Positions 1 through 11,019 of a DNA stretch of 11,019 nt are shown in pieces. Origin of the DNA: a virus (taxonomy: Duplodnaviria > Heunggongvirae > Uroviricota > Caudoviricetes); the IMG/VR virus record IMGVR_UViG_2534681990_000030; one strand, given 5' to 3'. A program made the translations under genes and the position numbers. Below the pieces are notes generated by a model that was not told the DNA's origin, did no database searches, and worked only from the letters and a program-made list of their open reading frames with translations. The stretch's first letter is position 1, and each line of letters begins with the position of its first letter.

Positions 1-186
1 TCATTGGTTGCCAGCCCGCGAATCAAGTTTGTTCTGGATCCAAGCTTCAACCTCCTCAAGCGACCATCTAGCTGATCTACCAATTTTAACTGGCTGTGGA
101 AACGTGCCCGTCTTAACCCATGAGTAGATTGCCGTTTTCTTGAAGCCCGTTCTGAGCATGACTTCGCTTAATTTGATAAGGCGCAT
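1..186 (-). CDS. alpA: AlpA-family phage transcriptional regulator (small HTH DNA-binding protein)
   Basis: 61-aa ORF MRLIKLSEVMLRTGFKKTAIYSWVKTGTFPQPVKIGRSARWSLEEVEAWI matches the AlpA pattern (L..EV...G.S...IY.....G.FP.PVKIG.R...W...E...W). ATG at 186-184 with GAGGAG 6 nt upstream; stop at 3-1. It is transcribed out of the window to the left. Confidence 0.75.
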   Translation of the reverse strand: MRLIKLSEVMLRTGFKKTAIYSWVKTGTFPQPVKIGRSARWSLEEVEAWIQNKLDSRAGNQ

Positions 187-235
187 AGAGGCTCCTCTGC
201 TTTAGATTAAGCATAGTGACAATCTGGCTTTGGGT

Positions 236-300
236 GGTATCCAAAAGCGAGGTATCCATGTTGGTATCCACCAAAACGCTGTTTACCAAAAAGTTACCAC
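236..300. repeat. Direct repeats of GGTATCCA (3 exact copies at 236-243, 251-258, 263-270) plus two degenerate GTTTACCA/GTTACCAC copies, in a divergent intergenic region
   Basis: Read directly from the sequence. Lies between the alpA start (186) and the divergent small gene (438). Could be regulator or recombinase binding sites; function not established. Confidence 0.45.
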
Positions 301-382
301 CGGAACAGGACATTTTGAGCTGTAACTTAACACATAGCATATGGAGTTCACGCATAGACTTCACGCACAACGGCTCTGGCCA

Positions 383-412
383 GTGAAGAATCACCCTGGC
401 TAGCAATATAAT
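383..412 (+). promoter_or_regulatory. Candidate sigma70 promoter for the small gene at 438 (-10 TATAAT at 407-412, weak -35 around 383-389)
   Basis: Perfect TATAAT hexamer 26 nt upstream of the ATG; the -35 match is poor. Sequence-only prediction. Confidence 0.3.
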
Positions 413-437
413 GCCGATCACCATCAGAGGGGAATCC

Positions 438-629
438 ATGACACCACGAGAAATCGAGCTGCTGACCATTGCCAAGCTGGAGCATGGCGGCCACCAGCTC
501 AGCCCGGCAGAACTGCGGGAATTAAGGCGCCAGCTGGCAGAGGGCCCTGTAATAGCCAGGCGGTACCGCGAAATGATGACCAGCCCCGCATATCGCTGGA
601 GCAAACCAGCGCCGCTCCGTGCGCGGTGA
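438..629 (+). CDS. Small hypothetical protein (63 aa), paralog A of a duplicated family
   Basis: ATG at 438 with AGAGGGG 5 nt upstream. I chose 438 over the track's 411 because the paralog at 1438 starts at the equivalent MTPREI and cannot extend upstream (in-frame TGA at 1432-1434). N-terminal 21 aa are 20/21 identical to the 1438 ORF; shared C-terminal REMM..PAY.W.KPAP motif. Confidence 0.6.
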   Translation: MTPREIELLTIAKLEHGGHQLSPAELRELRRQLAEGPVIARRYREMMTSPAYRWSKPAPLRAR

Positions 630-703
630 GCAGCACCTAACCAGCACTAGACAAGCCCTGTGCTGGTGGATGTCCCTCATAATTAGCGGTTTTTAAACGG
701 CGT

Positions 704-824
704 GTTGGTTCACGGCCTCTTTTTGTTGGTTCAAAAATGGGGTGTGTTGGTTCACTTTTTGCGAATAATTCTTTTAAAAACAATACTCTTTACAAATTGA
801 ACCAACTGAACCAACTGAACCAAC
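704..824. repeat. Iteron/operator-like array: GTTGGTTCA x3 in direct orientation with exact 21-bp phasing (704, 725, 746), an AT-rich spacer, then TGAACCAAC x3 in tandem (798-824, inverted orientation)
   Basis: Read directly from the sequence. Sits immediately upstream of the PerC-like gene (ATG 861); a TATAAT hexamer lies at 842-847. Confidence 0.6.
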
Positions 825-860
825 ACCTTTTTGCTTATCTATATAATCTGAGAGGCAGAA

Positions 861-1142
861 ATGATAAGGGACAGGAAAGCTGAAGAGCTGGAGTCAAAAG
901 GGCTATACCGGAGAGCTGCCGCACGATGGATGGAAGTCATGCTGTTATGCACCGAGGACGATGATCGGGAATGGATAAAGCGCCGCCGTGAAACGTGTCT
1001 GGAGAACGTGAAGCGCCCGCCCGTGAAGGTTGAGGAATTTGGCGACCTGCATAAAGCTGTTACCGAAACGCAACACCGCATGGGGATAGCGCAACCGAAC
1101 GGTAACGCCTTCCGGTTAAATGGCGGCAAGAGGCAAAGGTAG
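861..1142 (+). CDS. PerC-family transcriptional regulator (PerC/Pch-like)
   Basis: 93-aa ORF with AEELESKGLYRRAAARWMEVM ... REWIKRRRETC ... TETQHRMGIAQPNGNAFR, matching the conserved PerC/Pch pattern (LE.KGLWRRAA.RW.EV ... WI..RR..C ... TQ.RMGI..P.G.AFR) as I recall it. GAGAGG RBS 4 nt upstream of the ATG. Confidence 0.65.
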   Translation: MIRDRKAEELESKGLYRRAAARWMEVMLLCTEDDDREWIKRRRETCLENVKRPPVKVEEFGDLHKAVTETQHRMGIAQPNGNAFRLNGGKRQR

Positions 1143-1146
1143 ACCA

Positions 1147-1168
1147 CCAGAGGGAAATCATCCTCTGG
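1147..1168 (+). terminator. Hairpin (CCAGAGG - 8 nt loop - CCTCTGG) 5 nt after the PerC-like stop codon; weak intrinsic terminator candidate
   Basis: Perfect 7-bp inverted repeat. The downstream tract (ctggcggtttctggtatttc) is only moderately T-rich, so termination is uncertain. Confidence 0.3.
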
Positions 1169-1437
1169 CTGGCGGTTTCTGGTATTTCGGGACAAGTACG
1201 CGCGCGTAGCACCCAATCGGTGAGGAAATAGCGGCGACCTGAATGGTCAAAATCACAACGCAGCTATCCCCGTAAGCAGCGCTTAACGGAATAGCAGTAA
1301 CCTGAATCCAGTGGGGAGGGGGTAGTCAAATCTCTACAGCCCTGACTATCCGGGACTGCCCGCCCCATCGTTTTTTTATACCCGCGAAAAATGAAATTTA
1401 ATCCGGGCGTGTTTCATCCTTCCAGAGGGTATGACGT

Positions 1438-1623
1438 ATGACACCACGCGAAATAGCCTTATTGACCATCGCCAAACTTGAGCACGGAGGCCACCAGCTT
1501 ACACAGGCAGATCAACGGGAGATAGAACGATCAGTTAATGCCGATATAGCCCGGCGCGACAGGTTCCGCGAAATGATGCGAGCACCTGCCTACCAGTGGA
1601 AGAAGCCAGCGCCGCGCAGGTAG
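1438..1623 (+). CDS. Small hypothetical protein (61 aa), paralog B of a duplicated family
   Basis: ATG at 1438 with AGAGGG 8 nt upstream. Same N-terminus (MTPREIALLTIAKLEHGGHQL) and C-terminal motif as the 438 ORF, with many synonymous nucleotide differences between the copies. Confidence 0.6.
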   Translation: MTPREIALLTIAKLEHGGHQLTQADQREIERSVNADIARRDRFREMMRAPAYQWKKPAPRR

Positions 1624-1743
1624 ATATGGGATTATTCCACATGTAACTTATGCGTATTAAGCAAATTTCCTTTATTCACCTTTACAGAATTGTGAGTACG
1701 TCAGTATCGTTATCCTTCCGATTCGCATTTATTCAGGATTTGC

Positions 1744-2286
1744 ATGTACCAGCTAAAGATAACCATCCGAGACAGCAAACCACCTATATGGCGGCGTGTG
1801 CTGGTTCCAGAGCAAATCCCCTTTAGTAAACTTCATGCCGTGATCCAGTTAGCTTTTGGCTGGAATGACGAACACCTGTATATGTTCGAGAAAGGGCGTA
1901 AAGGTGATCCAGGTAGCGAGTATCGCGTATGGGGTGAGGATGAAAGCATGGGTAACGCGGCAATCACGCCACTATGGGCGGCGCTCCAGAATGAGGGTGA
2001 CAAGCTGGTTTACACGTATGACTTTGGCGACTGGTGGGATTGCGTCATTGTGCTGGAGAAGCAAACACACGATACGAGTAATCAGCCCATTAGCTGCCTG
2101 CGTGGGAAAGGCACCACCCCGGCGGAAAACTCAGGCGGCTTGCATGGTTACAATGAATTGCTATTACAGGCCAGAGAGTCTGATAATCCTGAGCAGGCCG
2201 AGATCCACAATTTCCTGATGCTGGATATTGAACGCCGGGTTTACGACCTGAGCCGCATCAACGACAGATTGCAGGCTATTAACTGA
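1744..2286 (+). CDS. pRiA4b ORF-3-like family protein (function unknown)
   Basis: 180-aa ORF with the family hallmarks as I recall them: N-terminal LKITIRDSKPPIWRRVLVP....LHAVIQLAFGWNDEHLYMF, central YTYDFGDWWDCVIVLEK, and CLRGKG..PAENSGGLHGY. Preceded by an AT-rich promoter-like region (1624-1743). Confidence 0.7.
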   Translation: MYQLKITIRDSKPPIWRRVLVPEQIPFSKLHAVIQLAFGWNDEHLYMFEKGRKGDPGSEYRVWGEDESMGNAAITPLWAALQNEGDKLVYTYDFGDWWDCVIVLEKQTHDTSNQPISCLRGKGTTPAENSGGLHGYNELLLQARESDNPEQAEIHNFLMLDIERRVYDLSRINDRLQAIN

Positions 2287-2638
2287 CCCGCATGTATTCA
2301 CCTGATATTGCGTTGTCAGCGCCGCCAGTATCGCGCATAACAGCGCACTGACCGGGTAAACCGTAGCGCACGACCGTTGCGTTAGTATCACCGCCGCGCC
2401 GTATCTGGCGCGATTCATACACTGTCACCCGCTCAAGCAGTCCACCAGCAACCATGCTTTCCAGTGTGCGCCGGGTTGATTCGAGCTGGTGACGCTTATC
2501 GAACGACACCATGCCATGAAGCAGGTAGGCCACACCCGACACATCGAACGGCGGCGCACCAATCTCACCAGTCACCCATTCGAGGTTATCCGGTTCAAAG
2601 TAGCTAAGTATCTCTTTTTTGCGACTGGTCATTCTCAT
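2279..2638 (-). CDS. Hypothetical protein (119 aa), convergent with and overlapping the 3' end of the pRiA4b ORF-3-like gene by 8 nt
   Basis: ATG at 2638 with AAGGAA about 10 nt upstream. The N-terminal two-thirds (MTSRKKEILSYFEPDNLEWVTGEIGAPPFDVSGVAYLLHGMV...LESMVAGGLLERV) looks protein-like; the C-terminal third is low-complexity. A 7-bp inverted repeat (TTATTGT 2654-2660 / ACAATAA 2676-2682) lies just upstream of the RBS. Confidence 0.45.
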   Translation of the reverse strand: MRMTSRKKEILSYFEPDNLEWVTGEIGAPPFDVSGVAYLLHGMVSFDKRHQLESTRRTLESMVAGGLLERVTVYESRQIRRGGDTNATVVRYGLPGQCAVMRDTGGADNAISGEYMRVS

Positions 2639-2639
2639 G

Positions 2640-3274
2640 GCTGGCTGATTCCTTATTGTGGGATAGCACTATCATACAATAAGTGGGTTAAAGGGAGAGC
2701 GTTACCGCCTGATATGCTGTATGAATAACAACCAAATTTCAGGTGCGGAAAAAGATATGGGGGTACTTTTGGGGGTATCTATAAAAAATGAACAATAAAA
2801 AAGGCAACAAAAACAAAGCTTATCGCCTATGTGTATTGTTCCTATTATCGCACCATTTATATCAAGCAATTACGATTAAATCCTCTCTTTGTCTGCATCA
2901 TGATTTTTTCCGTGTAACTCCATGTGTAAGTAATTTTCGTCAACATAAATCAACAATAGAGCATCCGTATCTCAGATTGGCTCAGTCTTGTTGATTTTTT
3001 CATCTTGATGAAACAATATTTCTGATATTGATGTTGGACATTTGGGGGGGCAGCTTAGCAGGCCTGTACAGGTTGTTTCATTGATTATTGCTCTATATGC
3101 CTGCCCTTTTAGATAGCCCTTTCCTGTCTACTTCCATCTATGGTGTAATCCCTTGCGAGATTAAGGTTTCTTTCGAGAGATAGTATGGAATTATTCGAAA
3201 ATTATTTGTCAGCGTTACCTAAAAAAAAGCGATTGAGTAAAGTCAAGTTGATTATCCTAAAGAGATTATGGGTT
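2640..3274. other. ~630-bp AT-rich segment with no convincing ORF, located at the truncation point of the primase gene
   Basis: Markedly lower GC than the flanks. Only a 68-aa plus-strand ORF with implausible composition is present. Contains a G7 homopolymer (3044-3050) and an A8 tract (about 3219-3226). Confidence 0.5.
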
Positions 3275-3913
3275 TCAGATGATTTTGATTTTCCTAAACC
3301 TTGGGTCAGTCAGGAGTCTTTTTTCACCATGTGATGTAATAGTCTGTGCTGCTGTGACTGCGCCGGATTTATCCACCAGCGCCAGCAACAGAGATCCATC
3401 GGGCAACACGGGGAATGTAAAATCACCTACCCCTTTCGCAACCAGATAATCAGATTTGCCGTTTACAGCCTTTCTGCGCATGTCATCAAACTGACGGGAA
3501 AACGTATCCCGTCTTTGTTGTTCGTCCTTCTCTGCCCTTTTCAGGCGCTCCTGTTCGCGTCGCTGGCGCTCGGTTTCCAGTTGTTCCCGTTTCTGGCTGG
3601 TGGCTTCTGGTGTTTCCGTTGTCCGGTAATCAATACCCAGAACATCAGCGGCAAGAAGCGCCGCCTCTGTTGTGTCGCAGTTATTTACGCGTTTAATTAA
3701 ATCCAGCCCATCACCAGCGCCGCACTGATTACAGATGAAGCTACCGCGCCCGTTGTCATCGAACCGGAATCGATCTTTGCCCCCACATGCAGGGCAGGGA
3801 GCATGACGGCGCGGAGAGTCAGGGACATTTATGTTCAGGCAGCCCAGCACATGAGGCCAGTTGTTTTCAGACGCACTGATAACCTGACGGATAAGATCAA
3901 TGTTTCGCATCAC
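3275..3913 (-). CDS. DNA primase (P4 alpha / toprim-type), N-terminal zinc-ribbon portion only; apparently truncated before the catalytic Toprim and helicase domains
   Basis: 212-aa ORF containing HAPCPACGGKDRFRFDDNGRGSFICNQCGAGDGLDL (CxxC...CxxC primase zinc ribbon), a charged linker, then the first residues of a Toprim-like region (DYLVAKGVGDFTFPVLPDGSLLLALVDKSG), ending at a TGA at 3277-3275. Full-length homologs are typically 600-800 aa (from memory). Start is GTG 3913 or ATG 3910. Confidence 0.6.
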   Translation of the reverse strand: MMRNIDLIRQVISASENNWPHVLGCLNINVPDSPRRHAPCPACGGKDRFRFDDNGRGSFICNQCGAGDGLDLIKRVNNCDTTEAALLAADVLGIDYRTTETPEATSQKREQLETERQRREQERLKRAEKDEQQRRDTFSRQFDDMRRKAVNGKSDYLVAKGVGDFTFPVLPDGSLLLALVDKSGAVTAAQTITSHGEKRLLTDPRFRKIKII

Positions 3914-4268
3914 CGTACCCCACGTGGTCTATAGCGTTTGCGATATGGCTAACCAGCATCTGCCACTTGGTTATTCCGTAATCAGTCAGCATGCCATCAT
4001 TGTTTAGCCACATATCAAATTCAGCGGTTGTCGCAAGTTTCCACTTATCGCCGTGGACAGTCCTCATTGCTGGGTACATGAATGCGCAAATCAGATCACA
4101 AACATCTGACGGCTTCAGAGATGTAGTAATGGTGCGTCCCTCTGGCGTCTGAATTGCCATTTTCTCTTCACCAGTAGAATGAAGGTTATGAATCCACACA
4201 GCACCAGCAATCTTTGCCACCTGCTCTCCGATTGCGGAGCTAAGCGCCATTTCTGCATTTTCACGCAT
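3897..4268 (-). CDS. Hypothetical protein (123 aa)
   Basis: ATG at 4268 overlaps the upstream gene's stop by 8 nt; its own stop overlaps the primase start. No motif recognised. Confidence 0.5.
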   Translation of the reverse strand: MRENAEMALSSAIGEQVAKIAGAVWIHNLHSTGEEKMAIQTPEGRTITTSLKPSDVCDLICAFMYPAMRTVHGDKWKLATTAEFDMWLNNDGMLTDYGITKWQMLVSHIANAIDHVGYGDAKH

Positions 4269-4602
4269 GAGAACCTCCCGCTACAGTTGCGCCCATGTCA
4301 TTAACCATGCTTTGCCATATCTCACGCCCGACGTCAGTCAATCCGTCCTTAGTGACGCAACGCTCAAGAAGCTCGATCCCCACGGTTTCCCACTGCGGGT
4401 AGAACACTTTCATGGCTGCCAGTGTGTAGCTATCGATCAGGCTGCGAACGCCTTTTACTCCATTAACGATTTCCACACGTACGGCCTCGCCGTCCGCATC
4501 AACCATGAAATAGTCCCCGCCGCTGGTGGAGGTAATGTGGTTATACAGTGCCGACGCATACTTATTTGCCAGCGCATTCAGTCGGAAATTTTTAGTAATC
4601 AT
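4261..4602 (-). CDS. Hypothetical protein (113 aa)
   Basis: ATG at 4602 with GGATGGAG immediately upstream, 10 nt after the stop of the preceding gene. No motif recognised. Confidence 0.5.
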   Translation of the reverse strand: MITKNFRLNALANKYASALYNHITSTSGGDYFMVDADGEAVRVEIVNGVKGVRSLIDSYTLAAMKVFYPQWETVGIELLERCVTKDGLTDVGREIWQSMVNDMGATVAGGSHA

Positions 4603-4612
4603 GGCTCCATCC

Positions 4613-5215
4613 TCAGTGCGTCACTGGTTCCGCTGGCATGCCGTTTTCATTCAGTTCAGCTATAAAGCTGTTGTGAAGTTCAGCAAGCGTTTCACGACCA
4701 AATGGAGTCAGTGCTCCTTGTTCCACATCCATCATGGCTCTGTAGAAAATGATGGCGCGTTCTGTGCCAGACTCGATGCCAAAACGTTCTATCATCGCTC
4801 CCTCAATGTTGTTTGCCATAGCGAGGCGCTCTGCTACTGGATACAGCGGCATGGCGACGATGCCGTTGGAATAAACAGCCACTTCGGAAGGATTGCCAGT
4901 ATCATCAATGATGCTGACAGTGCCGTTTTCCTCTCTCATTTCCAGCATGAATACTGTTGCGATCAGCCATCTCCACATAATGACGTTATGCTGTGATGTG
5001 TAATCGAAATATCCCTGGTTGCCGCCATCGGCAATAGCGAGATGTATTGACATACCTTCATCTGGTTTATCGTCATAATCCCCGGCATCCAGACGATTTA
5101 CGGCATCAATATATGAGACGGCCTCAACGCGTTCTGTCATGCCATCGTTGCTGCGGTACATGATGTTTACGCCGTCAGGCGTTGCTTCTGTATGGAAAGT
5201 TAAGAAATTATTCAT
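4613..5215 (-). CDS. Hypothetical protein (200 aa from ATG 5215; the ORF track extends to 5320)
   Basis: I favour ATG 5215 (MNNFLTFHTE...) because it overlaps the upstream gene's TAA (5208-5210) in the same coupling pattern seen across the operon, with GAGG upstream. The track's longer start would overlap the upstream gene by more than 100 nt. Confidence 0.5.
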   Translation of the reverse strand: MNNFLTFHTEATPDGVNIMYRSNDGMTERVEAVSYIDAVNRLDAGDYDDKPDEGMSIHLAIADGGNQGYFDYTSQHNVIMWRWLIATVFMLEMREENGTVSIIDDTGNPSEVAVYSNGIVAMPLYPVAERLAMANNIEGAMIERFGIESGTERAIIFYRAMMDVEQGALTPFGRETLAELHNSFIAELNENGMPAEPVTH

Positions 5216-5429
5216 GTTTCGCCTCGCCTGAATGATTCTGTAACTCATATTTGCCCAACAATTCGTCCGCTTCCTGAATAGCTTCTGGTACGCCATTGAG
5301 CAGTGACATAACCGCGCCAATCATTAACTTGTCTCTGTTGCTGGGGCTGGCCCCTTCAAGCCAGAACCCTAAAACAGTCTGAACCTGTTCGATGCGACAT
5401 TGCGCTTCAATGAGCTGGATGTTGGTCAT
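5208..5429 (-). CDS. Hypothetical small protein (73 aa)
   Basis: ATGA start/stop overlap with the upstream gene at 5426-5429. Confidence 0.45.
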   Translation of the reverse strand: MTNIQLIEAQCRIEQVQTVLGFWLEGASPSNRDKLMIGAVMSLLNGVPEAIQEADELLGKYELQNHSGEAKHE

Positions 5430-5689
5430 TTCGCACTCTCCACATCGATTAAACCGATATCTATCAGGGAGGTAACTTTTTGTAGCCAGCTATTGATTAC
5501 TGTCGCCTGTTCCCCGCCCACCGAGGGAACAATCTCATTCATCACATGAACCAGACCTGTGCGCGCTCTGGTAAGCCGTTCAGTCGCGCAATCTGCGGGA
5601 GTGAATGTGTCTGGATATGGCTCTTCACGCCCCAGCAATGATTCAATTTCCAGCTCACACGGATGACGATAAATTAAGTTGATATTCAT
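5426..5689 (-). CDS. Hypothetical small protein (87 aa)
   Basis: ATGA start/stop overlap at 5686-5689; GGGGGTG RBS upstream. Confidence 0.45.
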   Translation of the reverse strand: MNINLIYRHPCELEIESLLGREEPYPDTFTPADCATERLTRARTGLVHVMNEIVPSVGGEQATVINSWLQKVTSLIDIGLIDVESAK

Positions 5690-5880
5690 TTTTCACCCCC
5701 AAGAATTACCAGCTCGGCACGGGCATCGTTAACCAAAGATGAGCACGCTTTAATCGCATCCACGACATCAGTAGCGTCCATTTCTTCAGCCGAAAGACTG
5801 ACAGCAACCAGGACAGCCGCTGCTTGCTCGATTAATTGAAGTGCGGACGTAAGGCGAGGGGTATTAATTGAGTTATTCAT
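5686..5880 (-). CDS. Hypothetical small protein (64 aa from ATG 5880; the track ORF extends to 5937)
   Basis: ATG 5880 overlaps the preceding stop (5873-5875) by 8 nt. Start choice is uncertain. Confidence 0.4.
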   Translation of the reverse strand: MNNSINTPRLTSALQLIEQAAAVLVAVSLSAEEMDATDVVDAIKACSSLVNDARAELVILGGEK

Positions 5881-6091
5881 TGGTTGCCCCCGTTTTTCCT
5901 GGCATTTCGCCACCTTCCAGCAGGAAATGAACGTCACGAACGGCGAGATCCAATATCGCGAGTAACGCCTTCAGTCTTTCGTCTCGTGAGGGAGAGTTGC
6001 TCACCAGAATGTCGTTAATCACTTCTGTCAGTGTGATGATCTGGCTTGTGCGTTCGAGGGGATCCATATGCACATCGTAGGTTTTAATCAT
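5873..6091 (-). CDS. Hypothetical small protein (72 aa, [17 protein letters not shown]...); an internal in-frame start within the long 5873..6940 ORF
   Basis: ATG at 6091-6089 with GGAGGTG 4 nt upstream, overlapping the Icd-like stop by 8 nt. Sequence is protein-like, unlike the long ORF's frame immediately upstream. Confidence 0.4.
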   Translation of the reverse strand: MIKTYDVHMDPLERTSQIITLTEVINDILVSNSPSRDERLKALLAILDLAVRDVHFLLEGGEMPGKTGATNE

Positions 6092-6940
6092 GTGCCACCT
6101 CCATGCGGATACGACCAGCAAAAAAGCAGATGTGATCGCGCACCAGAGAACGGCGAGCATCGCGTTCAGACTCGGCAGCAATATGATGAATTTTGGCGGT
6201 AATTGTCGGGCAATCGCGGCGAACTGCGGCGATAATCCAGATAAATTGCGGTTTTTGGGTAGGGGTAGTAGCCAGCATGTGGCAGCCTCCTTGTACTGGG
6301 AGTTCTTCCCACCACCGGAGCTGCGAAACTCGCTGGTGGTGGACTGAACAGAGTTCGCAGTACCGGCGTACAAGGAAACCGGCCAGCCTTTCGGCTGCCC
6401 TGTCCAGCCCACCATAATTTTGCAAGCGACGCGGATTATAACCGCATCACTGAAAAAAGTGTGAGTCTGGCTAACGGCACAAAAAAAGACGCTCGGCGCG
6501 TCATGTGTCGCCTCGTACATTTCCGGGCTGCGAAACCCGGCACCCGTTTTATGAGGTGCCTTATAACCATAAACCGTGTTGCCGCATAACGGCAAGCTCT
6601 TTTTTATGGACTCCGAAAACTCACTATTGGAAGCACCAGATGCACAATACATCGCGCTCATTTCGTTAACGTCGCGCGTGTGGACGAAGGTTTTTGTGGA
6701 GTCACTACGCGAGCAGAGAAAGCCATCTACGACCAGAAATTCTCTGGCGCAGCCGCCGACCTTCTCAACGCTAACACCATCGACCGTAATTTCTGACATA
6801 GTTAAGGCATCCGCTCCCACCACCAGAAAATGATAAACTTTGCTTGTATCTGCTGTATTAATGCCAGACTTTGCTGTCATATTGCTGGATTTTGGCGACA
6901 TACCAGCCAGTGAAAATATCTTCTTCTGGACGGTTAGCAT
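5873..6940 (-). CDS. Long ORF (355 aa) of unresolved gene model: hypothetical protein whose first ~170 codons (6940 to ~6430) look protein-like; the remainder overlaps the Icd-like and 72-aa genes
   Basis: ATG at 6940 with GGAGG 7 nt upstream, overlapping the preceding gene's stop. The frame stays open to 5873, but between ~6425 and 6091 its translation is S/L/P/A-rich and unprotein-like while another frame carries the Icd-like gene with a strong RBS. Possible frameshift or lost stop. Confidence 0.35.
6084..6278 (-). CDS. Icd-like protein (host cell division inhibitor Icd-like family), 64 aa
   Basis: [64 protein letters not shown] resembles Icd-like small proteins of P4-type elements (recollection, not a search). 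ATG at 6278-6276 with AAGGAGG 8 nt upstream. It lies out of frame inside the long ORF 5873..6940. Confidence 0.45.
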   Translation of the reverse strand: MLATTPTQKPQFIWIIAAVRRDCPTITAKIHHIAAESERDARRSLVRDHICFFAGRIRMEVAHD

Positions 6941-7116
6941 TTGTTAACCTCCGCGAACTCCTTCATGAAGCGCGCCAGCGGTTGTACGCATGGCGATTGA
7001 TACCCGTCGCGATAAAACGTCACTCGGTTGTGAGACACGCTTTCGACAGTAACGAGTGCTCCGTGGGCATCCTTGTAGCGTTTTTGAGGTTGTGGTGTTC
7101 CTGTCGGCTTAAACAT
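6934..7116 (-). CDS. Hypothetical small protein (60 aa, [60 protein letters not shown])
   Basis: ATG at 7116-7114 with GGAGGTGG 4 nt upstream; overlaps the AntA-like stop. The track's longer ORF to 7203 would overlap the AntA-like gene by ~95 nt. Confidence 0.45.
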   Translation of the reverse strand: MFKPTGTPQPQKRYKDAHGALVTVESVSHNRVTFYRDGYQSPCVQPLARFMKEFAEVNKC

Positions 7117-7942
7117 GGACCACCTCCAGACGCTTAGCGAGCCAGCGTTGCGACAGGCGGGTGAGTTCTCCTTTGCGCTGCTCATATTCCATGCCCATAT
7201 CAATTAACGTGATATTGGTGCTTTCGAGATATGAGAGGTGCTCAAGTTGTTCTGCGTTCATATGGTCGCGAGGTTCGCCAGAATAGCCATTTATCCGCGC
7301 CCACTGCTTAGCAGTTAGCCCACCAAGAACGATACGAGAAATCATATTGCTCTCGTTTGTGTAGTGGTGTTGCTGCGTCGTTTTCCCCTGCTCGGCACGG
7401 GCCATATTCAGCGCATCGCACATTGGCTTAAAGTTGTTTGCGGCACTGATACGGGCTTTTAGCTGGCGAAGATAGCGGGCGGCGATTTCAGGAACGCTAC
7501 GCTGTAATTCTTCCTCGCACTGGATGAAATAACGGCGGATAGCGCGACCCTGATCATTGCGTTCGATCATTGCCAGTTCTTTCGCCATTCCGACACTTAA
7601 CAGATAGTCTTTGCCGGGTCTGCCAGACTGCTTAATCTTTCTGTAAGCCACGCCATTCGGGCTTTTCCCCAAATTTGGGGAAATAGTTTTATGGACTGAG
7701 TAATCGTGCCCAATGGTGAAGTCATATTCAGAGATGCGATCAGTGATCCATGTAGAGAAGTCTTTTCCCACGCCCAACGCTTTGTGTAACGCTTTTGCGC
7801 TAACAATATTGGTTTCACGCCCACCGATATGACCAGGAATAACCGGGACAATTGCGGCAAATTCATTACCGTTAATTGTGCTCAGAGAGGCGTTCAGATG
7901 AGGGGCGGCCTCAGAAATTAATCTGCTTTTTTCGATGTTCAT
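7109..7942 (-). CDS. Phage antirepressor-like protein (AntA/AntB N-terminal domain family)
   Basis: 277-aa ORF. N-terminal NIVSAKALHKALGVGKDFSTWITDRISEYDFTIGHDY matches the AntA/AntB antirepressor motif (ARDLH..L......F..WI..RI..Y.F..G.DF) as I recall it. GGAGA RBS; ATG at 7942. Confidence 0.6.
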   Translation of the reverse strand: MNIEKSRLISEAAPHLNASLSTINGNEFAAIVPVIPGHIGGRETNIVSAKALHKALGVGKDFSTWITDRISEYDFTIGHDYSVHKTISPNLGKSPNGVAYRKIKQSGRPGKDYLLSVGMAKELAMIERNDQGRAIRRYFIQCEEELQRSVPEIAARYLRQLKARISAANNFKPMCDALNMARAEQGKTTQQHHYTNESNMISRIVLGGLTAKQWARINGYSGEPRDHMNAEQLEHLSYLESTNITLIDMGMEYEQRKGELTRLSQRWLAKRLEVVHV

Positions 7943-7954
7943 TTTCAGTCTCCG

Positions 7955-8386
7955 TTAAGCGGCGTTAAACGCGTCCGGGTAGAGTTTCAGAATGTCGGCA
8001 ATTTCCTGCTGAGAAAGTCCGTTGTGATCATTTATGTTCGCAAGATGGTTAATATGAGTGATCACTTTCAGAACATCACCACGGCAGGAGAAACGGTAGC
8101 GAAGGTGTGTTCCGATACCATCAGGATTCTTTTCGTCGATACGCTCCAGAGTGATTCCAAGCTGGCGTTCTAACTCTGTTGCATAGTTACGACCAGAAGA
8201 CAGACGGCAGTAGCGAAGAATGTCATTTTCTGTCCATCCCTCTATACCAGTACGCAGCATATAGACTCTGGCACGATGCTTTTTCGGTGTGCGCTTTGGT
8301 GCTTGAAGGGATTTTGTAAGGGGCGTAACATCAGATACGCGAATATCTGAATTAGCCGCCTGTAATGGGCGGTTTTTCTTATTCAT
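7955..8386 (-). CDS. Hypothetical protein (143 aa), basic N-terminus; possible DNA-binding protein
   Basis: ATG at 8386 overlaps the alpA stop (TAATG). Lys/Arg-rich N-terminus (PKRTPKKHRAR). No specific family recognised. Confidence 0.5.
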   Translation of the reverse strand: MNKKNRPLQAANSDIRVSDVTPLTKSLQAPKRTPKKHRARVYMLRTGIEGWTENDILRYCRLSSGRNYATELERQLGITLERIDEKNPDGIGTHLRYRFSCRGDVLKVITHINHLANINDHNGLSQQEIADILKLYPDAFNAA

Positions 8387-8583
8387 TACGCTACCTCGCC
8401 ACGCGACTCAGCGATGCGCTGATTAATCCATTCTTCAATTTCACTTTCAATAAACGCAATTGATCGGCTTCCAATCTTTACAGATTGAGGGAATCGCTGT
8501 TCTTTGATGAGCCGATAAATCCACGCTTTGCTGTAACCAGTACGGCGTTGAACCTCAGAAAGACGAATAAATGATTGAGACAT
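8386..8583 (-). CDS. alpA: AlpA-family phage transcriptional regulator
   Basis: 65-aa ORF FIRLSEVQRRTGYSKAWIYRLIKEQRFPQSVKIGSRSIAFIESEIEEWI matches the AlpA pattern. AGGAG RBS 5 nt upstream of ATG 8583. Positioned as first gene of the coupled operon downstream of the integrase. Confidence 0.8.
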   Translation of the reverse strand: MSQSFIRLSEVQRRTGYSKAWIYRLIKEQRFPQSVKIGSRSIAFIESEIEEWINQRIAESRGEVA

Positions 8584-9662: not shown

Positions 9663-9804
9663 ACGCCACCCCGCGCCCCTAATTCTGACGGCTATGCCAG
9701 CCCGTAGGGGTGTACGGGTTTTCGGGGATCAGCCTAGACATAGCCTATTCTTTGTTCGTCTACATAAGTCTACTACCATTGCTTAACACGGTCTATTCAT
9801 ACAG

Positions 9805-11019
9805 TTAAGCTCGTTTCCCAAACGAACCATGAACAACGTTCTCCTCCTTCTCCAGCGCATCCATATAGTCGGCATACCATTGAAGCATCTCCCGCCTTCC
9901 ATCCAGATATTGCGCATGGTTGTATGTGCCACGAATTGAGTTCTTATCAACGTGAGCGAGCTGCGTTTCTATCCACGCGGTGTTATAGCCCTGCTCATGC
10001 AAAATCGTGCTCATAGTGTGCCGGAACCCATGACCAGTTACACGTCCAGCGTAGCCAATGCGCTTAAACACTTGGTTTATGCTGGCCTCACTCATTGTTT
10101 TCCTTGGATCATTGCGCCCGGGAAACATAAGAGGGTAATTGCCTGTTATTTCTCTAATCTTCCCAATAAGCGAAAGAGCCTGATCAGACAATGGCACAAT
10201 ATGAGGCCGCCGCATTTTCATACGTGAAGCGGGTATCTCCCAGATAGCCTTGTTGAAATCAATTTCATCCCATAATGCGCCACGTAGTTCGCCAGTCCGC
10301 AAGCCGGTGATAATCAGTAGACGAGCCGCCATAACAACCAATGCGCTTCCTGAGTAACTGGACAATGCCTTGAAAAAATCAGGTAATTCTTTAGCTGTAA
10401 GGAAAGGGTAATGATTAGATTCATGGCCTTGCATCGCGCTAGTAAGGTCTGGTGCAGGGTTATACTCTGCGCGACCAGTGACTATTGCATAGCGGAAAAC
10501 TTCCCCGCACCGCTGCCTCACTTTTTTGGCTTTTTCTGTAGCACCGCGCCCCTCGATGCGCCGCAGCACATTCAGAAGTTCAAGTGGTTTGATTTCGGCG
10601 ATTGGTTTTTTGCCAATGTAAGGGAACACATCTTTGTTGAAGGCTTCGAGGATGTCTGAAGCATAACCAGCAGACCATTTTTTTAATTTGCTGCTGTGCC
10701 ACTCAAGGGCAATATCTTTGAAGGTGTTGTTTAACTGCGTTTCCCGGGCAATCTTTTCCTCTCGTTTCGCTTCCATCGGATCGATACCACCAGCGATACC
10801 TCTTTTCGCATCTTCACGTTTTGCCCGAGCATCGGCTAGAGTAACCTCAGGATACACACCTAGTGCCAATAGCTTCTCTTTACCAGCTACACGATATTTA
10901 AGTCGCCAGTATTTACCTCCATTAGGTTTTACCAAGAGATACAAACCGCCACCATCGGCCAGCTTGTAAGCCTTCTCTTTTGGCTTGGCTGTGTCTATTT
11001 GACGGGCATTGAGTTTCAC
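9805..11019 (-). CDS. int: Tyrosine recombinase / phage integrase (P4-type); N-terminus at or just beyond the window edge
   Basis: 404-aa ORF with an N-terminal arm-binding-type motif (AKPKEKAYKLADGGGLYLLVKPNGGKYWRLKYR) and C-terminal catalytic signature HGFRHT ... IRGTYNHAQY (HxxR and nucleophile Tyr). The first codon in the window is GTG at the very last base, so the true start may lie upstream. Confidence 0.9.
   Translation of the reverse strand: MKLNARQIDTAKPKEKAYKLADGGGLYLLVKPNGGKYWRLKYRVAGKEKLLALGVYPEVTLADARAKREDAKRGIAGGIDPMEAKREEKIARETQLNNTFKDIALEWHSSKLKKWSAGYASDILEAFNKDVFPYIGKKPIAEIKPLELLNVLRRIEGRGATEKAKKVRQRCGEVFRYAIVTGRAEYNPAPDLTSAMQGHESNHYPFLTAKELPDFFKALSSYSGSALVVMAARLLIITGLRTGELRGALWDEIDFNKAIWEIPASRMKMRRPHIVPLSDQALSLIGKIREITGNYPLMFPGRNDPRKTMSEASINQVFKRIGYAGRVTGHGFRHTMSTILHEQGYNTAWIETQLAHVDKNSIRGTYNHAQYLDGRREMLQWYADYMDALEKEENVVHGSFGKRA

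Follow-up and report, generated by a model that had tools for sequence, protein, structure and literature searches.

The stretch of DNA considered here, hereafter the window (11,019 nucleotides; IMG/VR record IMGVR_UViG_2534681990_000030, a virus of the Caudoviricetes), carries two genes that run toward each other and share their last few nucleotides. One encodes a protein of the pRiA4b ORF-3-like family and the other a protein of 119 amino acids, p119, that belongs to no named family. An earlier account, made without database searches and called here the sequence-only reading, took the two for a single cargo module. The comparisons described below make it probable that the pRiA4b gene is cargo lying beside p119, a gene of the element's backbone, and that what joins the two is position rather than function. 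The features most directly at issue are these:

1438-1623, plus strand: p61, a small conserved gene (phrog_7271) whose product ends in YQWKKPAPRR; the inner flank of a variable slot
1681-1710, plus strand: sigma-70-like promoter candidate, TTTACA-18-TATCGT, matching the consensus at 9 of 12 positions, within the 120 nt that separate p61 from the pRiA4b gene
1744-2286, plus strand: gene of a pRiA4b ORF-3-like (MM3350-like) single-domain protein, 180 amino acids; the cargo gene of the slot
2279-2286, both strands: TTAACTGA, the 8 nt of shared coding ends, with TGA on the plus strand, TAA on the minus strand and the stop codons interlocked
2279-2638, minus strand: p119, encoding a predicted winged-helix protein of an unnamed family, 119 amino acids; conserved terminal backbone gene
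2840-2849, plus strand: TCCTATTATC, the att core at the attR end of an EcCIMP1-type island (core from PMC11773190)

Both open reading frames lie where the sequence-only reading had placed them, tail to tail, with positions 2279-2286 common to the two. The same 8-nt overlap is found in the window, in the comparison loci L004-L010 and L015, and in L038. A scan of positions 1 to 3400 found no terminator-like site between the converging genes. The smaller open reading frame, which had been proposed to be a real gene, evidently is one: it has 542 homologue clusters across the Enterobacterales (an exhaustive profile search gave 90 clusters at 50% identity), its pairwise ratios of nonsynonymous to synonymous substitution (dN/dS) run from 0.09 to 0.18, and it is annotated by PGAP in E. 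coli genomes.

The larger gene is a clear member of its family. Its 180-amino-acid product matches PF07929 (PRiA4_ORF3) with 146.2 bits against a cut-off of 26.6 (E=1.1e-42), residues 2-170 aligning with profile positions 3-167 of 173. It also matches PDB 2I1S (phmmer E=3.2e-21, residues 1-167), the structure of MM3350 from Methanosarcina mazei, with which it has the motifs IWRR..VPE, YTYDFGD.W and P.E.SGG..GY.E.L in common. MM3350, however, is an archaeal chromosomal protein that was deposited as a 'hypothetical protein', and it offers no functional clue. Searches of the literature for a function of pRiA4b ORF-3, PF07929 or MM3350 returned annotation mentions only, and to our knowledge no function has been assigned to the family since the 1980s. 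Scans of the NCBIfam and PHROG collections with the pRiA4b and p119 proteins gave nothing. Pairwise dN/dS for the pRiA4b gene is 0.04-0.15, pointing to strong purifying selection, and about 380 E. coli genomes, as well as the mobilisable element EcCIMP1, carry an intact copy.

EcCIMP1, a phage-inducible chromosomal island of 19,963 bp, resides in E. coli MP1 (Pick, Stadel & Raivio, ISME J 2025; PMC11773190). Its excision, circularisation and transduction have been shown experimentally, only with the helper phage Kapi1, and its ends have been sequenced; alpA is the factor needed for excision (PMC11773190). The island gives superinfection immunity against Kapi1, and PADLOC and DefenseFinder were negative, so that its authors propose a novel mechanism (PMC11773190). 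The putative accessory genes they name are only EcCIMP1_002 and the PerC-like EcCIMP1_025, and neither the paper nor its supplements mention the pRiA4b and p119 genes (PMC11773190).

Positions 1-2857 of the window match the attR end of EcCIMP1 at 99.8% identity. The homology with MP1 stops at 2857, 8 nt past the att core, and the core itself matches once in the whole window (expected 0.02). Two further stretches, 3309-8577 (98.0% identical) and 9829-11019 (98.4%), correspond to the part of EcCIMP1 that runs from int to the primase gene. The order in MP1 is int, alpA, antA and others, primase, ejection-like genes, alpA_1, PerC, p61, pRiA4b, p119 (on the opposite strand) and attR; the five genes from alpA_1 to p119 are in the same order in the window, and the pRiA4b protein (WP_000284450.1) is identical in the two. 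Identity to a mobilised element right up to its att core shows, at the level of sequence, that positions 1-2857 are the attR-proximal end of an EcCIMP1-type island. Judged by the gene order of MP1, the pRiA4b and p119 genes are the terminal pair at attR in the mobilisable EcCIMP1, with p119 transcribed inward. Neither protein matches a PADLOC-DB 2.0.0 model at E<=0.1, in agreement with the published PADLOC and DefenseFinder result for EcCIMP1 (PMC11773190).

The copy in the window is, however, a rearranged one. The window derives from the E. coli O111 thrW island and is 100% identical to O111:NM strain 14614 save for two stretches that it lacks; no other complete genome contains the whole of the window, and strain 14614 is not colinear with it. 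In the O111 lineage the distal segment, from alpA_1 to p119, is flipped with respect to the int-primase part, and EcCIMP1 sequence amounting to about 9 kb (most of the primase gene and the ejection-like genes) is gone. The att cores, which have the same orientation in MP1, are inverted in the O111 genome (5840 (+) and 18841 (-) in L002, as compared with 9709 and 29672, both in the same orientation, in L047). With its primase cut to 212 amino acids, some 9 kb absent and its cores inverted, the window copy is not an intact phage-inducible chromosomal island, and the O111 copy is probably immobile. The arrangement is consistent with an origin by inversion and deletion associated with IS1203, an insertion sequence (IS). 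The sequence-only reading had set the pair between a regulator block and a decayed primase gene and seen in this a sign of accessory cargo. The position is correct for the window, but it is secondary: the pair adjoins the truncated primase gene because of the rearrangement in O111 and because 3.3 kb is absent from the window, and in EcCIMP1 it lies at the attR terminus. The idea of accessory cargo suits the pRiA4b gene, carried as it is by an integrative element, but not p119, which reads as backbone.

The slot between p61 and p119

Loci for comparison were drawn from a p119 profile scan covering one genome per species, and the proteins of the window were placed in each locus by tblastn. Intact p119 is present in 27 of these loci. 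In 8 of them (L004-L010 and L015) the pRiA4b gene abuts p119 with the same overlap; in the other 19, p119 has no adjacent pRiA4b gene and faces instead either an empty gap or other cargo. Since, in addition, the pRiA4b clade has members, in L039 and L043, with no p119 beside them, the notion that the two genes make up one cargo module finds no support. The pair also departs from the type II toxin-antitoxin pattern, both in co-occurrence (p119 is widespread alone, and PF07929 genes occur without p119) and in layout (the genes are convergent, with overlapping stops, rather than joined in an operon).

What does recur opposite p119 is p61. In about 20 loci p119 faces a convergent p61 homologue, which is either its direct neighbour or separated from it by 0.6-2.1 kb of variable DNA, and the p61 family is a conserved inner flank in many genera. 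When the slot is empty, the stop codons of p119 and p61 are 26-30 nt apart (L011, L020 and L023) or about 11 nt apart (L024), and in L043 the ends of the two genes overlap. When it is filled, the contents are of at least eight different kinds and occupy 0.6-2.1 kb: SocA/Panacea antitoxin modules of two kinds (in two loci), an M78/CapP-like peptidase together with a membrane protein, a conserved ribbon-helix-helix (RHH)-like gene of 146 amino acids, unknowns of 244 and 279 amino acids, small-terminase-like genes and an IS256-type transposase. Combinations occur as well, among them pRiA4b with a Panacea antitoxin module or with an IS256-type transposase. Comparison of empty with filled slots revealed no direct repeats or insertion scars at the cassette borders.

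Conserved flanks around contents that differ between related elements are the mark of a hotspot. Hotspots of defence and accessory genes in P4-like satellites and P2-like phages, where changing sets of genes lie between core genes close to the integrase or att end, were reportedly described by Rousset et al. in 2022. Such hotspots are also described in PMC13586616. The present slot resembles those of the P4-like and P2-like elements in having two conserved flanks around changing content that includes toxin-antitoxin-like or conflict genes. It differs from them in belonging to another satellite family, with no sid, delta or psu, in having other flanks, and in its small size of only 0-2.1 kb. 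We know of no earlier description of a p61-to-p119 slot.

One locus, L038 (p119 95% identical, pRiA4b 61%), was considered as a mosaic in which one cassette had replaced another, and this was downgraded. The genome has many fragmented genes, and dN/dS there is 0.52 for pRiA4b as against 0.09 for p119, which shows relaxed constraint rather than cassette exchange.

Two other occupants of the slot deserve mention in their own right. The RHH-like gene of about 146 codons, which lies between p119 and p61 in L013, L016, L017, L021 (942-1385, plus strand), L022, L027, L028 and L031, encodes a protein with the N-terminus MSKSLSVTFRVPAEL and a conserved C-terminal half ending in GYQTKAGKAWDKDIYSAWKR. 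Pfam has no match for it, and it makes a further backbone family without a name. The SocA/Panacea genes of L008 (8939-10068, minus strand) and L021 (1363-2399, minus strand) are unrelated to each other, and each is followed by a small gene (145 and 134 amino acids, respectively) that matches no family. Perhaps these small genes encode new Panacea-associated toxins.

Seen from the side of the pRiA4b gene, the linkage with p119 belongs to one lineage. The enterobacterial clade to which the window copy belongs spans 58-97% identity, and the next relatives drop to 38%. Within the clade the gene mostly adjoins p119, including in L038, or a remnant of p119 (L040-L042 and L044). A Serratia contig has the pRiA4b gene with no p119 neighbour, followed by Phd-Doc, and in L043 the pRiA4b gene is 4 kb away from a p61/p119 pair whose slot is empty. 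Phd-Doc, GGDEF and Dabb genes are found beside members of the clade, and an IS adjoins the gene in L040 and L041. Outside the clade, PF07929 genes stand singly among housekeeping genes and have no winged-helix neighbour. The neighbourhood survey that the sequence-only reading had called for, in the expectation of a conserved partner, thus finds the linkage confined to one inherited lineage and the distant PF07929 genes partnerless.

Some relatives travel with transposases. In two phage genomes a PF07929 gene lies beside a transposase gene, in one case as an IS1096-like TnpA/'TnpR' pair and in the other with IS66. Some transposons of the ISAzba1 group carry a pRiA4_Orf3-like gene (PMC3942029), and the tnpR open reading frame of IS1096 is dispensable for transposition (PMC5681481). 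The 'TnpR' of IS1096, the passengers of the ISAzba1 group and the IS66-linked copy in Pseudomonas phage Marin resemble the window copy in coming from the same Pfam family and in being single small passenger genes; the copy in a Mycobacterium phage is, moreover, convergent with its neighbour. These transposon passengers are, however, only 27-33% identical to the window copy, which is carried by a phage satellite and has no transposase; indeed, neither a transposase nor IS ends accompany the pRiA4b gene in the window. The name 'resolvase' for TnpR has no support.

The p119 protein and the palindrome before its gene

No entry of Pfam, NCBIfam, PHROGs or PADLOC matches p119, so it is not in a named family, and a p119 profile run against the sequences of PDB also gave nothing. 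Among 41 relatives there are weak, sub-threshold Pfam matches, which are scattered but fall mostly in winged-helix families, and the modelled fold is a winged helix. The 25 C-terminal residues are conserved yet are predicted with low confidence. p119 differs from winged-helix repressors of the ArsR and MarR types in that it matches no such family at threshold and has no recognisable ligand or dimerisation domain. Going by the model, p119 may be a winged-helix DNA-binding protein that regulates itself, and it would be a regulator belonging to the backbone rather than a partner of pRiA4b.

Homologues of p119 without pRiA4b are found in about 112 E. coli genomes (at 60-80% identity), for example between PerC genes in an O157:H7 island. 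Others lie in Klebsiella phage ZX1 (early region), next to int in prophages of Serratia, Proteus and Moellerella, and on a P1-like plasmid, upstream of a SNF2/DarB-like gene. The position at an att end, beside int, brought an excisionase to mind, but this was disfavoured: p119 and its palindrome are found also on the P1-like plasmid, which does not integrate, and EcCIMP1 already has alpA as its excision factor (PMC11773190).

The plasmid in question, pPSS-10_3 (NZ_AP027688.1; p119 homologue at 5982-6353 of L046, minus strand), is a P1-like phage-plasmid with the same palindrome. There the homologue lies 95 nt upstream of a co-directional SNF2-related gene, possibly DarB-like, of more than 1,900 codons, as seen in a 5,887-bp view in which the gene is incomplete at one end. 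This hints that regulators of the p119 type may control anti-restriction or defence cargo elsewhere.

The DNA ahead of p119 carries the following features:

2650-2654, minus strand: Shine-Dalgarno sequence AAGGA of p119, 11 nt before the ATG
2652-2683, minus strand: near-palindrome CTTATTGTATGATAG-TG-CTATCCCACAATAAG, 32 bp; candidate operator and promoter of p119
2802-2828, minus strand: terminator-like hairpin with a T-run, between the att core and the p119 promoter region

The arms of the palindrome (2652-2666 and 2669-2683) are 15 nt each, 87% complementary, and separated by a 2-nt spacer. The sequence-only reading had noticed a 7-bp inverted repeat here and had it flank the ribosome-binding site. 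It had indeed come upon a conserved cis element, but it was one base off and had described too little of it: its 7-bp arms are 2653-2659 and 2676-2682, the outer part of the palindrome, and the whole lies directly upstream of the ribosome-binding site, its proximal arm overlapping AAGGA by 2 nt. The 7-bp repeat by itself would not exceed chance; three other perfect 7-bp pairs turn up in the same 1.6-kb scan. The larger element fares differently. A 30-nt element, TTATTGTATGATAGnnCTATCCCACAATAA, is unique in the window, had no matches in 200 shuffles, and is found at a fixed distance before the p119 ATG in nearly every intact locus, the P1-like plasmid included. In an alignment of 28 loci the palindrome is kept ahead of p119 and the GGA of the Shine-Dalgarno sequence varies little or not at all, whereas beyond the palindrome the upstream DNA sorts into unrelated groups. 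Each locus has one copy; in L015 and L031 a loose pattern matches both strands at that site by virtue of its near-symmetry.

The symmetry might reflect either a DNA site or an RNA hairpin. The hairpin was rejected, as the symmetry persists because the positions do not vary, not because changes in one arm are compensated in the other. In 116 of 500 shuffles the covariation score was equalled, and an outer position (10/33) lacks pairing in 10 of the 27 sequences. The lack of covariation beyond that of shuffles argues for a DNA site. No Rfam family was found at the locus of the convergent pair. A -10-like box, TATGAT (2676-2671, minus strand), falls inside the palindrome, and the element may therefore be a protein-binding site that covers this box, the predicted start and the edge of the ribosome-binding site. 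Most likely, we infer, it is an operator through which p119 represses itself. The hairpin at 2802-2828, a consensus match only, is the sole terminator-like site in positions 1 to 3400, and it could insulate p119 from transcription reading through across the end of the element.

A probable passenger beside a putative regulator

The reading that we consider probable, a cargo gene beside a backbone gene, may be put together as follows. The setting is the end of a satellite of the EcCIMP1 type, as in the island that helper phage Kapi1 excises and transduces. By comparison of loci, p61 and p119 converge near its attR end, and the gap between them is a variable slot, either empty or holding exchangeable cargo. 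p119 would bind the 32-bp palindrome over its own -10-like box, start and the edge of its ribosome-binding site, and so repress itself; gene and palindrome together would form a self-contained unit, also present in prophages and on the P1-like plasmid. The pRiA4b protein would be a stand-alone passenger, acting without p119. Expression of its gene may start at a weak promoter of its own within the 120-nt spacer, or else depend on transcription that reads through from p61. The site at 1681-1710 could be that promoter, although weakly so, for sigma-70-like sites are no more numerous in the region than is expected from shuffled sequence. Since there is no terminator between the convergent genes, transcription of p119 could dampen that of the cargo, perhaps by collision or by antisense pairing, and any occupant of the slot would be affected alike, not pRiA4b alone.

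Several observations weigh against this account. A simple sigma-70 scan finds no promoter for p119, and the -35 region is not conserved; that p119 binds DNA, that it regulates itself and where its promoter lies are all things that we infer. The other occupants of the slot are toxin-antitoxin-like or without a family match, and PADLOC finds no complete known defence system among those tested. In most lineages of the enterobacterial clade the pRiA4b gene abuts p119 with the same 8-nt overlap, and the extra cargo of L008 and L015 lies on the p61 side, never between pRiA4b and p119. Among 30 sampled rows, the E. coli p119 genes at 93% identity or more are always accompanied by pRiA4b. The constant abutment may be inherited and self-preserving, because no intergenic DNA is left into which anything might insert. 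A functional link would predict the same absence of insertions, and the lack of intergenic DNA accounts for it equally well.

Such a link is what the first alternative proposes: a dedicated two-gene module that moves as a unit, with p119 as regulator or antidote and pRiA4b as the effector of a toxin-antitoxin-like or defence pair. The abutment kept in the window and nine other loci (L004-L010, L015 and L038) speaks for it, as do the p119 remnants beside pRiA4b in L040-L042 and L044, the placement of extra cargo outside the pair in L008 and L015, a layout, winged helix (as modelled) plus palindrome, that is typical of autoregulating antitoxins, and the fusion of some members of PF07929 to a winged-helix domain of the LexA type. 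But convergent genes cannot be co-transcribed. p119, far commoner than pRiA4b, keeps its operator and its purifying selection where pRiA4b is lacking; pRiA4b itself lacks an adjacent p119 in L039 and L043; distant PF07929 genes have no winged-helix neighbour; in L038 one gene is relaxed (0.52) and the other constrained (0.09); and neither protein matches a PADLOC model. We therefore regard a dedicated module as unlikely.

The genes might be linked instead through their RNAs, the mRNA levels of p119 and pRiA4b setting each other and so providing a switch between the integrated and induced states. The absence of a terminator-like site and the overlap of the coding regions would suit such a cis-antisense arrangement, and so would the fact that p119 converges on the end of the PerC-p61-cargo unit even when the slot is empty. 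That same fact, however, makes convergence a property of the backbone, not one specific to pRiA4b, and there is no Rfam RNA family here. A switch of this kind is, to our mind, quite improbable. The last alternative, that pRiA4b is a hitch-hiking transposon passenger with no role and p119 an inert leftover, draws on the PF07929 genes that ride with transposases, the dispensability of IS1096 tnpR (PMC5681481), the IS beside pRiA4b in L040 and L041 and the defective, rearranged state of the O111 island, but it is very unlikely in view of strong purifying selection on both genes across genera, an intact pRiA4b gene in some 380 E. coli genomes and in a mobilisable island, and a window copy that has neither transposase nor IS ends.

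If pRiA4b is a passenger that acts on its own, what might it do? Because its relatives travel with transposases, because tnpR is dispensable, and because its slot-mates are toxin-antitoxin-like, a role in conflict between mobile elements (such as phage interference or superinfection immunity) is the likeliest that may be suggested, although the odds are against it. That pRiA4b should be the determinant of the immunity of EcCIMP1 to Kapi1, either alone or at a level set by p119 and its operator, is a long shot. Were it so, PF07929/MM3350-like proteins would be a new single-gene class of phage-interference factors, in a family that is widespread in satellites, transposons, plasmids and phages. 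Whatever its role, a family that has a structure and no function is now placed in a tractable system with an unexplained superinfection immunity, where a few deletions could assign its first function. What looked like a two-gene cassette would be a passenger gene lying against a regulator of the backbone, at the att end of a satellite that has already been characterised. The unnamed p119 family, with its roughly 540 clusters, gains a predicted fold, a cis element and a testable role, and a small variable slot is defined, in EcCIMP1-type islands and related prophages, that can be mined for conflict genes.

Other features of the window

Upstream of the slot lie two further genes:

411-629, plus strand: p72, a paralogue of p61 (phrog_7271) with a C-terminus like YQWKKPAPRR
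861-1142, plus strand: PerC-like gene; ANR_neg_reg at 31.1 bits, just below the threshold of 32

p72 and p61 are 62% identical and bracket the PerC-like gene. The product of that gene is identical to EcCIMP1_025, which, according to published work, represses LEE1 in Citrobacter rodentium and is not an activator. The near-threshold match to ANR_neg_reg fits this repression.

The two stretches that the window lacks relative to strain 14614 are a 3.3-kb segment with most of an HNH endonuclease gene, a Dcm methylase gene and IS1203 (between 3307 and 3309 of the window; 6307-9645 of L002), and a 1.3-kb IS1203 (at 7025-7032 of the window; 13369-14671 of L002). At the first junction the HNH gene, after about 25 initial codons, runs into the truncated primase gene. 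Perhaps the window came from a different strain, or perhaps it is an edited or collapsed assembly.

At gathering level, Rfam recognises three RNAs in the window, all on the minus strand: a C4 antisense RNA (6332-6419, 81 bits), an isrK Hfq-binding RNA (6482-6559, 69 bits) and an int-alpA RNA motif (9677-9744, 47 bits). The first two fall within a region of long 'ash family' open reading frame, and their matches suggest that the satellite may carry an antisense immunity cassette of the P1/P7 type.

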